Origin: Escherichia coli
Lineage (GTDB): Bacteria > Pseudomonadota > Gammaproteobacteria > Enterobacterales > Enterobacteriaceae
NCBI RefSeq assembly: GCF_024502345.1
Contig: NZ_JALDNN010000001.1
DNA: 64,000 nucleotides
Strand: one strand, 5' to 3'
Below, one piece after another: positions 38,963-41,991 of this stretch. A model generated the notes under the pieces. It did no database searches. It saw only the letters and a program-made list of their open reading frames with translations, and was not told the origin of the DNA. Within the stretch, counting starts at the first letter, position 1; each line of letters opens with the position of its first letter. The translations under genes were made by a program, and so were the position numbers.

Positions 38963-39445
38963 GTTGGAGTCATTACCGATTATGTAATCGCCTAAACTCT
39001 TTGATAGCCGACGTTTCAAGCAACATGGATTTGCCTGAATTTAAAGCAGCCATTAATTTATCAAGGGACTGTGCGAACTTACCTGCTGGGTCTGTCGGTG
39101 TATCACGTGTTGTCGAAACAAAATGATAGATGTACATTTCATCTTCATGCTTCGTATTAATGTAAGTAAGATGAATAGCAACCGCATACGCAGGGCCACC
39201 GGACTCACTAAATTCATCACCAACAATTAAGAAATCACCAAAACCATTCATACCCTCTTCTTCATAATTAAGATGAAGATCTGAAAAGAACTCAGAATCG
39301 GGATGGTCAGCATTTCGTCTTTTTTCAAAGCCATCTTTAATTAAAATTCTTTCTGAACCCGAAAAATGTTTTCGATAAGCTTTAGAACAATAGTTAGAAA
39401 TAAATACATGTTTGTTGATCCTACCCACGTAATATGGACACAGAC

Positions 39446-40312
39446 CTAAGCGAGGTTCTGGTTTTCAAATTGTTCCGGACTGAGGCCGCCACACCAACTG
39501 TGCCGCCGCCACCGATTGTAATCACATTCGATATAATTAAACACCGTTGCCCGCATTATTTCCCGGCTGATAAAGTGTTCTCCATGGATACATTCCACTT
39601 TCAGCGAATGAAAGAAGCTTTCCACGCAGGCATTATCGTAGCAGCAACCTTTTGCGCTCATACTTCCACGCAGATTATGCCGCTTCAGTTGCGCCTGATA
39701 ATCTGCTGAACAGTACTGGCCTCCACGGTCCGTGTGAACGATAACGTTCCGGGGCCTCTTACGCCGCCACAGCGCCATCTGCAGGGCATCGCAGGCCAGT
39801 TGCGCCGTCATGCGTGGCGACATTGACCAGCCAATAACGGCACGTGACCACAGGTCAATGACCACTGCCAGATACAGCCAGCCTTCATCTGTACGTAAGT
39901 ACGTGATGTCTCCTGCCCACTTCTGGTTCGGGCCACTGGCGTAAAAATCCTGCTCCAACAGATTTTCTGACACAGGCAGGCCGTGTGCGCGGTAGCTGAC
40001 CGGGCTGAACTTCCGGGAGGCCTTTGCCCTCAGTCCCTGACGGCGCAGGCTTGCCGCCACGGTTTTTACGTTAAAGGGGTAACCCTGAGCACGCAGTTCA
40101 TCCGTCAGGCGTGGGGCACCGTAACGCTGTTTTGACCGGGTAAAAGCCGCGAGGACAACGCTGTCGCAGTGTTGGCGGAACTGCTGACGCGTGCTTATCC
40201 TTGTCCGCCGCTGACACCACGTATACCAGCCGCTGCGGGCCACCCGGAGCACGCGGCACATTGCTTTGATGCTGAACTCAGCCTGATGTTTTTCAATAAA
40301 GACATACTTCAT
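39446..40312 (-). CDS. IS3 OrfB DDE transposase (InsF-like)
   Basis: 288 aa; DDE integrase core (WAGDITYL...HTDRGGQY...AESFF). Confidence 0.9.
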
Positions 40313-40617
40313 TTCAGGCGCTTCGCGAAGTATGTCGCGGCCTTTTGGAGGATAGCCAGCTCTTCATCCCGTTCTGCCAGCTGGCGTTTGAGACGTGCAA
40401 TCTCGGTAGACATCTCCAGTTCACGTTCAGAAGACGTCTGCTGATTTTGCTGTTTACTGCGCCAGTTGTAGAGCTGTGATTCATACAGGCTGAGTTCACG
40501 GGCTGCGGCAGTAACACCGATGCGTTCAGCAAGCTTCAGGGCTTCACTGCGAAATTCAGGCGAATGCTGTTTACGGGGTTTTTTACTGGTTGATACTGTT
40601 TTTGTCATGTGAGTCAC
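40309..40617 (-). CDS. IS3 OrfA (InsE-like)
   Basis: 102-aa [34 protein letters not shown] with HTH and leucine zipper. Confidence 0.9.
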
Positions 40618-41088
40618 CTCTGACTGAGAGTTTACTCACTTAGCCGCGTGTCCACTATTGCTGGGTAAGATCATGTATCCATCCCCAAATCTTTCATGTA
40701 AAGCTTTTGGCTCATCAAACCCGGCATGAATAAAGGTGACTTCATGAACGAGATCTGAATGAAGGAGATTATCAACCTTAGCAATAGTCATACTCTTATC
40801 AAGAAGTATTCCTACAGAAATTTTTTCATACTTACTAAATTCATTTTTTAATAATTGAGCTATACTTTGTCCATCGGTAGAGTGATCACCACATGCCGGA
40901 TTAATGATGACAATAGCCCTACCATCATTTTCTTTTATTGTTTTCAGTGTTCGCTCAAGACCATTGAGAGCCTCTCTCACAGGCTCTATAATTGGAGTAA
41001 AACCTGCCTCAGCCATTACATTAGCAGTGTCTCTAATAGCCAACAGTTCAAATTGTTTCCCACGAAAATAAGGATAATACATAGTTTG

Positions 41089-41991
41089 TTACTCCCATAA
41101 CAATGCCTCATTAAGAGGAAGCTGCATAGTATTAATTAATCGCTCATGATCCTTAGAGCGAAGCTGAATAGAAAGTGCCGCTGGTTGTAAAGACTTTGGT
41201 AAGTTGAGAATCAACTCTCTTAAAGAAAGTAAACTTCTGCTTTCCTTTAAAGTTTTTAGCATTAAATTATATACAGAAACAGGTGGTAGGCCACTAAACT
41301 CTTCTTTTAAGAAACCATGCATTTGGGTATTCGGTAAGTCGGGGATTTTTATACCTAACTCGGAAGCAATAATTTTCGCCTCATTAATTCTTAATGATTC
41401 AAAGATTGTTACAGGGCATATAAAGTCTAAAACTTCTTCAGCTTCTCTTATAGTAGATATTCGATTCCAACGGGTTAAACTCAATACCCCAATGGAAGAT
41501 TCAGTCGTTTTCAGCACATCATCTAAATGTTCTGAACCTGCTATGACATAGATTTTCCCAAATGCTTTACGGTAGTTCGTTATTTGGTTTTGTAGACGGC
41601 TTAATGAATCCCTTTCGGATTTTATTTCGTAAACCGTTCCAGTTCCGTTCAGTATGATGAGATCAGCTTTGCAAGAGCCGATTCTGAATTCATTAAGCAT
41701 ACAGGCAGTTCTTAATGAATGCTTCCCAAGCAAAAGATTGTGTGTGAGCGCAGAACGATAAACATACTCATTCCGCAAGCCTGTTTGTCTAAGTAAGGCA
41801 AATGCCTCATTGAAGGCTTCACCAACGGTAATCCCAAGTGTCTCTGCATGGTCAAAAAGCTCGGTCTCTCGGAGAGAACGAGCAAACATAGGAGACTGCC
41901 CTCTTTTCGCTATCTCGCTGAAGACGGAAGCGGAAAAAAGTCTACTTAAAGCAGTCAGTTGAAAAGAGCTAAGTTCGTTACTTCTCATCAT
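41089..41991 (-). CDS. Hypothetical protein with PD-(D/E)xK nuclease-like signature
   Basis: 300-aa ORF; segment CKADLIILNGTGTVYEIKSERD fits a D...(E)xK motif; AT-rich; 7 nt upstream of the IS-disrupted partner. Confidence 0.55.
   Translation of the reverse strand: MMRSNELSSFQLTALSRLFSASVFSEIAKRGQSPMFARSLRETELFDHAETLGITVGEAFNEAFALLRQTGLRNEYVYRSALTHNLLLGKHSLRTACMLNEFRIGSCKADLIILNGTGTVYEIKSERDSLSRLQNQITNYRKAFGKIYVIAGSEHLDDVLKTTESSIGVLSLTRWNRISTIREAEEVLDFICPVTIFESLRINEAKIIASELGIKIPDLPNTQMHGFLKEEFSGLPPVSVYNLMLKTLKESRSLLSLRELILNLPKSLQPAALSIQLRSKDHERLINTMQLPLNEALLWE

Follow-up and report, generated by a model that had tools for sequence, protein, structure and literature searches.

The two nearest tested relatives of the locus considered here are the anti-phage systems gop-beta-cII of satellite phage P4 and aRES. 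gop-beta-cII gives protection against lambda and P1, and its Gop protein is toxic when beta is missing (PMC9122126). Its toxicity is triggered by the phage gene orf184 (10.1101/2023.04.06.535777), and the system has been reported only from Proteobacteria (10.1101/2024.10.26.620412). aRES, described in a 2026 preprint from the Sorek laboratory (Osterman et al.), is a stand-alone protein with RES and PF18870 domains that shields E. coli from phages; it converts nicotinamide adenine dinucleotide (NAD+) to nicotinamide and ADP-ribose-1''-phosphate (ADPR-1''-phosphate) and depletes NAD+ upon infection (10.64898/2026.01.28.702374). RES toxins are also classic toxins of toxin-antitoxin systems (literature cited in PMC9503650). 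Here, we analyze a stretch of 64,000 nucleotides (nt) of Escherichia coli DNA (contig NZ_JALDNN010000001.1 of assembly GCF_024502345.1), hereafter the window, in which a pair of genes of the sce7726 and sce7725 families has been broken by two insertion sequences (ISs), IS3 and IS1. The locus is best explained, at a probability of roughly 0.7, as the inactivated remnant of a conserved operon of sce7726, sce7725 and a RES gene, the intact form of which is most likely an abortive-infection or toxin-antitoxin-like defence.

The window copy itself is an ordinary pseudogenised remnant of little importance to its host. What it points to is a very strongly conserved three-gene cassette, with about 5,500 clusters at 90% identity for sce7725, which joins two partly understood anti-phage systems: gop-beta-cII of P4, whose components are described as of unknown function, and aRES, which is described as stand-alone.

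A conserved cassette of sce7726, sce7725 and RES

The first gene of the pair (gene A; 41089..41991, minus strand) is an intact open reading frame (ORF) of 300 amino acids (aa) that scores 176.7 bits on the NCBIfam family NF033832, sce7726_fam (cut-off 70). The second (gene B) is split; its rebuilt 281-aa remnant scores 309.8 bits on NF033831, sce7725_fam (cut-off 60), and an intact 310-aa homologue scores 362.3 bits. The family names sce7725 and sce7726, which an earlier sequence-only reading of the window had suggested, are thus the right ones. In the intact E. coli loci of strains AHS8C65RI (L001) and W409 (L003), a third gene follows the one for the 310-aa sce7725 protein. Its 341-aa product carries the annotation RES family NAD+ phosphorylase, and the gene starts 1 nt past the sce7725 stop codon; if an earlier ATG in the same frame is used, the start lies 11 nt before that stop. 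The AHS8C65RI trio is at about 4327293-4330270 of NZ_CP125885.1, and strain MS 115-1 (NZ_CP146665.1) also has an intact trio.

We surveyed 80 genome loci with sce7725 relatives 51-98% identical, from Proteobacteria, Actinobacteria, Acidobacteria, Chlorobi and Gemmatimonadota, of which 78 had enough flanking sequence to be testable. sce7726 lies immediately upstream of sce7725 in every testable locus (78/78), with a typical gap of 7 nt, and a RES homologue lies immediately downstream in 74, at junctions that range from a 20-nt overlap to a 12-nt gap. The other four have a split or mis-called sce7725 or RES ORF, and their RES gene lies within ~450 nt or overlaps, which brings the linkage to 78/78. 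The downstream RES homologues are 48-100% identical (median 57%), and the same trio is present in 12 IMG/VR contigs with close relatives. Adjacency of sce7725 and sce7726 also holds in 26 of 28 further loci, the exceptions being L085, a short contig that lacks the flank, and L109, in which the tblastn match ends at sce7725 residue 68. The adjacency that the sequence-only reading expected in other genomes is therefore widespread; its description as a two-gene module was right about the pair and wrong about completeness, given that a RES gene follows in all 78 testable loci of this copy's clade.

Intact trios were found in 18 of 5426 complete E. coli genomes, and every copy seen is carried by an integrative element, a satellite or a prophage. 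Intact copies adjoin type I and type III restriction-modification genes, AbiE, and genes annotated as KwaB-like, TIR, caspase-family and Pycsar-effector. In the two intact E. coli loci, the neighbouring KwaB-like, TIR-domain, caspase-family and Pycsar-effector-family genes (L001 7079..11625, L003 20648..21541) differ in content between strains. Another IS-disrupted copy occurs in Halomonas piscis (L084, CP119391.1, 10936..14464), where two transposase genes separate sce7725 from RES and a 72-bit RES fragment is found just past sce7725; this locus adjoins type I restriction-modification, AbiE and reverse-transcriptase genes. Judging from titles and abstracts, the literature that names sce7725 or sce7726 appears to consist of genome reports and surveys, not functional studies.

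The RES protein that the window has lost is homologous to aRES, the anti-phage NAD+ phosphorylase. BLASTP aligns the intact E. coli protein over its full length to the tested aRES of E. coli UC5 (25% identity, E = 2e-14), and its domains are RES (1.4e-17) and HEPN_RES_NTD1 (2.9e-4). The CxxC...CxxC, FxRAR, GRxN and SE(I/V)RP motifs are common to both and invariant in the trio proteins. The intact homologue thus has the domain make-up of aRES (300-600 aa, RES PF08808 plus PF18870), while PADLOC (including its gop model) and NCBIfam gave no match for it. The RES protein is the probable effector of the trio.

sce7726 and P4 cII are one family. Gene A matches the PADLOC 'cll' model PDLC02989 (7.5e-20), as a cII component should, and P4 cII itself by BLASTP (9e-13); P4 cII in turn reaches 151 bits on sce7726_fam. 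Both proteins belong to phrog_984, and the current Pfam label on sce7726 genes is PF26915, Phage_P4_cII. The defence-model search that had been proposed for both proteins of the pair was accordingly productive for sce7726 only, with nothing recognised by PADLOC for sce7725.

The D...EIK nuclease-like signature that had been noticed in gene A is a family-wide feature: D110, E122, K124, Q136 and Y140 are invariant among 45 sce7726 family members. D...ExK...QxxxY is the motif set of RecB- and Cas4-type nucleases. An AlphaFold2 model (predicted local distance difference test score, pLDDT, 85) places these residues in a core of helix 75-87, strands 97-104, 107-114 and 117-121, helix 130-140 and strand 148-152, in the order alpha-beta-beta-beta-alpha-beta, with D110 in strand 2 and E122 and K124 directly past strand 3. 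Searches against solved structures (by sequence, in the PDB) and Pfam nuclease families gave no significant match (PDDEXK_3, E = 0.17). Taken together, the conserved residues and the modelled fold suggest that sce7726 is likely a RecB-type PD-(D/E)xK nuclease-like protein.

sce7725 is a large and very strongly conserved family, with 5549 clusters at 90% identity and 1417 representatives at 50% identity. Its members are ~60% identical between E. coli and Planctomycetota or Actinobacteria, and 50-65% across phyla. Nine columns are invariant among 122 diverse members (P34, N170, D196, H217, H233, S236, L288, K292 and H299), which suggests an enzyme or ligand-binding site. The three last of these lie within the C-terminal motif HFPGLGxVKKLSMxHHIETL, which the window copy is missing. 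The structure model (pLDDT 97) is a triosephosphate isomerase (TIM) barrel, and a sequence search of the PDB gave no match.

A remote relationship of sce7725 to P4 beta emerged from profile comparison. A profile of the 122 sequences aligned by hhalign to the beta family gave probabilities of 83-87% and P = 4-9e-6 over 211-217 columns, the best alignment having 87% probability, P = 3.8e-6, 217 columns and a score of 50.6. Controls scored far lower: 26 for the reversed beta profile, 19.2 for the best of 20 column-permuted profiles and at most 20.7 for unrelated family pairs. The alignment takes in two motifs, YYPxxRxxxxEL at the N-terminus and GDF/GDH. We read this profile similarity as probable distant homology, not as family membership. 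NCBIfam gave nothing for P4 beta, and in AFDB50 the best 50 matches to the sce7725 model were family members only, so that beta is not visible there.

Two database entries touch on sce7725 in other ways. The only clear viral predicted-structure match to its model is the BFVD entry A0A5J6TRS2 (379 aa; E = 1.7e-9, TM-score 0.66), which we do not yet count as evidence for the beta link; if it belongs to the beta family, it would give that link structural support. In AlphaFold DB, part of A0A317SAQ9 from Tuber magnatum (a 761-aa fragment named 'RES domain-containing protein') aligns to sce7725 with 55% identity, and it is either a real fusion or the product of bacterial genes merged by a eukaryotic gene caller.

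The window copy and its decayed island

Gene B starts at 41082, 6 nt past the stop codon of gene A, and its GGGAG ribosome-binding site overlaps the end of gene A; the tight coupling seen earlier is real, although the spacing is 6 and not 7 nt. At 37-39% G+C against 54% for uxuA (36220..37440, minus strand), the cassette genes are as AT-rich as had been remarked. The uxuA region is 98.6% identical to E. coli W409.

Gene B is interrupted by an IS3 of 1258 bp (39416..40673, minus strand), read from the sequence by its terminal inverted repeats and a TGT on both sides (39413-39415 and 40674-40676). Its orfA (40309..40617) and orfB (39446..40312) are on the minus strand, in the orientation of the sce genes, and matching DNA is annotated as IS3-family transposase in E. 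coli records. Size (~1258 bp), inverted repeats, the two ORFs and the 3-bp target duplication all agree with IS3. On the minus strand, the element separates a 5' fragment of about codons 1-136 (40674..41082, one TGT copy, 40674-40676, included), which is 99.5% identical to L001, from a middle fragment of about codons 136-281 (38978..39415), which is 100% identical to L001 13425-13862 and stops at the IS1 boundary. Removal of IS3 and one TGT restores a single frame, open for 281 codons and continuing into IS1, where the stop codon of the ORF (38973-38975) sits, and residues 282-310, the final 29 codons, are absent from the window. The sequence-only reading had described a clean TGT duplication and a frame that could be rebuilt to at least about 280 aa, and the rebuilt DNA is indeed up to 99.8% identical over all 1862 nt to uninterrupted E. 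coli copies. The rebuilt gene B product differs from the intact 310-aa protein of L001 by a single change (K50Q) and gene A from its L001 counterpart by none. So close a match to intact copies (0 and 1 amino-acid changes) shows that the damage is recent.

The 768-bp IS1 (38210..38977, plus strand) is a deletion junction and not a simple insertion. Its flanks, ACAAAAGTC and GATTATGTA, differ, and the ~9-bp target duplication of a simple IS1 insertion is lacking, in agreement with the earlier observation. On the left is sequence that matches the fimH 3' end of strain W409 and consists of the last 19 nt of that gene (38191..38209, minus strand, ...TFVYQ and the stop), identical to L003 11192-11210, the annotated fimH 3' end; on the right is sequence from within sce7725. 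Therefore, the deletion took the sce7725 3' end and the RES gene, so that the IS1 cut is more than the truncation of gene B for which it had been taken. Comparison with W409 and AHS8C65RI extends the lost span through an integrase gene up to the fimH 3' end. Relocation of the RES gene within the 64-kb window was considered and ruled out, as neither that gene nor the sce7725 C-terminus has a copy elsewhere in it. In W409, another IS1 variant, 94.6% identical, sits between truncated fimD and integrase genes and next to an intact trio; it represents an independent IS1 event in the same region.

With RES gone, sce7725 split and without its invariant C-terminal motif, and only sce7726 intact, the system of the window cannot work. 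The order of the IS3 and IS1 events is not readable from the sequence. If sce7725 restrains RES, we would speculate that RES was lost before IS3 inserted or that the IS3 insertion was polar on RES.

The 149 bp upstream of sce7726 (41992..42140, minus strand) travel with the cassette. Similarity to both intact E. coli loci ends at 42140, 149 bp upstream of sce7726; therefore, the context of the cassette differs between strains. The region presumably holds the cassette promoter, and a consensus scan of it found no minus-strand sigma-70 site. Further upstream of sce7726, a 2-kb AT-rich segment (42141..44127, 36% G+C) is unshared with both intact loci; its 133-aa ORF (42534..42935, minus strand) has no NCBIfam family match.

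The cassette island adjoins the leuX tRNA gene (tRNA-Leu CAA, 52282..52366) and has a P4-type integrase gene at 50842..52092. Its 14-kb remnant also contains an IS903-like element (48544..49600), a frameshifted hsdM (44128..45254) and an autotransporter gene. The decay of the leuX island is general and IS-driven. The sequence-only reading had suggested from the double IS hit that the module was costly or dispensable; selection against the module was considered here and need not be invoked, given the general decay (IS903-like element, frameshifted hsdM, loss up to fimH).

Several observations on the surroundings stand apart from the cassette. The hsdM-like type I restriction-modification gene is broken into two ORFs (91 and 267 aa) that score far under the family cut-off, and is a pseudogene. 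The element at 48544..49600 and another at 32277..33333 are 1057-bp IS5-family elements of IS903 size, 100% identical and inverted; they bracket ~15 kb that includes uxuA, the sce remnant and the autotransporter gene, and recombination between them could invert this whole segment. Apart from the final 19 nt of fimH, positions 36000-53000 of the window hold no other fim sequence, and the strain is probably unable to make type 1 fimbriae. At 59337..59635 are about three tandem copies of a ~100-bp unit, 91-94% identical.

Function of the intact cassette

Because sce7726 is of the cII family, sce7725 is probable kin of beta and the RES protein is homologous to aRES, the intact trio most likely acts by abortive infection, as a relative of gop-beta-cII in which RES takes the place of Gop. 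Gene identities, three-gene linkage, homologies and IS anatomy are observed directly, while action against phage, the part played by each protein and the chemistry of NAD+ are what we infer: the RES protein would be the effector and deplete NAD+; the beta-like TIM-barrel protein would restrain or regulate RES, as beta does Gop in P4; and the cII-like nuclease may serve as an infection sensor or as a second effector. A defence-type role, which had been proposed from the gene arrangement, is likely given that sce7726 belongs to the family of a gop-beta-cII component (PMC9122126) and that intact copies sit in mobile defence islands.

A number of points weigh against this reading. sce7725 and beta are linked only remotely: BLASTP between the two is not significant, hhalign with a shallow profile gives E = 0.16, they are in different PHROGs, and neither the PADLOC beta model nor Pfam (including the beta family PF14350) matches sce7725, so that it would not be recognised as a beta component. 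More distant sce7725/sce7726 pairs (30-35% identity) occur without a RES gene, and hence RES is not essential to the pair. These pairs are arranged variably, with sce7726 in front, with sce7725 in front or convergently as in P4, and some adjoin a prophage immunity region; the pair thus seems to be the conserved core, to which a variable third component is added. Tested aRES proteins are stand-alone and longer, so the trio RES may not need partners and the partners may act otherwise. Finally, that sce7726 is an active nuclease is a prediction, and so is any catalysis by sce7725.

These points lend themselves to a narrower explanation, in which the core is the sce7726/sce7725 pair only, with sce7726 as effector and sce7725 as regulator, and RES is an independent, neighbouring stand-alone aRES gene. 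The distant pairs that lack RES, and even vary in gene order, speak for it, as do the tested aRES proteins that act alone (10.64898/2026.01.28.702374); the supplementary genome list of the same preprint includes two trio carriers, Thiorhodococcus drewsii AZ1 and Propionicicella superfundia DSM 22317, whose listed aRES genes may be those of the trio. Nevertheless, we consider it unlikely: RES follows in 78/78 testable loci across phyla, with 74 junctions between a 20-nt overlap and a 12-nt gap, the three genes are about equally conserved (~50-65% identity), which is not expected of defence genes that are neighbours by chance, and the trio RES has 341 aa against more than 399 in the tested aRES. 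The classic role of RES toxins in toxin-antitoxin systems (literature cited in PMC9503650), the toxin-antitoxin behaviour of Gop and beta (PMC9122126) and the confinement of all copies seen to integrative elements, satellites or prophages would also suit an addiction module that stabilises its mobile elements and has no primary role against phage. We give this little credence, as gop-beta-cII and aRES are both protective against phage, defence genes surround the cassette, and a nuclease-like protein plus a 310-aa TIM barrel are far more elaborate than a simple antitoxin; addiction and defence are, moreover, not mutually exclusive.

It is very improbable that the genes form a housekeeping or metabolic unit, a TIM-barrel enzyme with a DNA-repair nuclease, unrelated to conflict systems. 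sce7725 is conserved like an enzyme, with its nine invariant columns in 122 diverse members, but the distribution is patchy (18/5426 E. coli genomes), the ~55-65% identity across phyla points to horizontal transfer, and the AT-rich cassette is always on mobile elements or in defence islands and is linked to a RES NAD+ phosphorylase and the P4 cII family. Nor did Pfam, NCBIfam or the PDB yield a match to a characterised metabolic family, a finding that would have told against the sequence-only reading.

Within the preferred reading of the trio as a RES-armed relative of gop-beta-cII, we tentatively entertain a broader idea that may well prove wrong. The cII-like nuclease and the beta/sce7725-like TIM barrel could be a widespread sensor and regulator core (thousands of clusters in many phyla, phages and satellites) with interchangeable effectors, namely Gop in P4, an aRES-type protein here, and none or others elsewhere, and the TIM barrel could truly be an enzyme, one that synthesises or degrades a small molecule by which the effector is controlled. 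If true, gop-beta-cII and part of the aRES family would be united in one new defence superfamily and both would be given a mechanism. Even without this extension, control of RES by the cII-like and beta-like proteins would offer a testable model for the silencing and triggering of RES NAD+ phosphorylases and a hint to the roles of beta and cII in P4. It would also allow defence-finding tools to be extended: PADLOC v2.0.0 (2023), the sole tool run, recognises only the cII-like gene.

Comparison with known systems

gop-beta-cII, which DefenseFinder and PADLOC list as Rst_gop_beta_cll, and the trio are alike in having three genes on mobile elements, each with a toxic third component. Their cII and sce7726 proteins are one family, and beta and sce7725, probable distant homologues, share the YYPxxRxxxxEL motif. 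They differ in the third gene, which in the trio encodes a 341-aa RES protein and in P4 the 133-aa Gop with two hydrophobic, probably membrane-spanning segments; no gop component was found in the intact copies, and the window has no third gene. The trio runs in one direction in the order cII-like, beta-like, effector, whereas in P4 gop comes first, beta next and cII last, on the opposite strand. sce7725 has 310 aa compared with 355 for P4 beta, and while trios are found across many phyla, reports of gop-beta-cII are confined to Proteobacteria. In the distant pair L090 the two genes are convergent, as in P4. Pasteurella phage Pmp11 (OR544128.1, 10480..12426) shows the cII-beta pairing outside P4 itself, with a sce7726/cII-like gene convergent with a beta homologue that is 38% identical to P4 beta.

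aRES and the trio RES protein share the PF18870 and RES domains and the same N-terminal CxxC...CxxC as well as the FxRAR, GRxN and SE(I/V)RP motifs, at 25% identity. The trio protein is shorter (341 aa compared with more than 399 in the tested aRES), and it does not stand alone as aRES does: it is always the third gene of an operon (78/78), directly past sce7725 in 74 loci and near or overlapping in 4. With RES-Xre systems of the MbcT/MbcA type the trio would share a NAD+-destroying RES-domain toxin that is neutralised by the product of a gene just upstream. However, the trio has no Xre or helix-turn-helix antitoxin directly upstream of RES; that gene is sce7725, a TIM barrel, the upstream partners are TIM-barrel and nuclease-like proteins, and the trio RES protein bears an extra N-terminal domain, unlike the RES-Xre toxins.

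RecB- and Cas4-type nucleases share with sce7726 the D...ExK...QxxxY motif set and, by prediction, the alpha-beta-beta-beta-alpha-beta core. sce7726 departs from them in its large N- and C-terminal helical domains and in lacking an evident Cas4-type cysteine cluster, and has no significant sequence match to solved nucleases or Pfam nuclease families.

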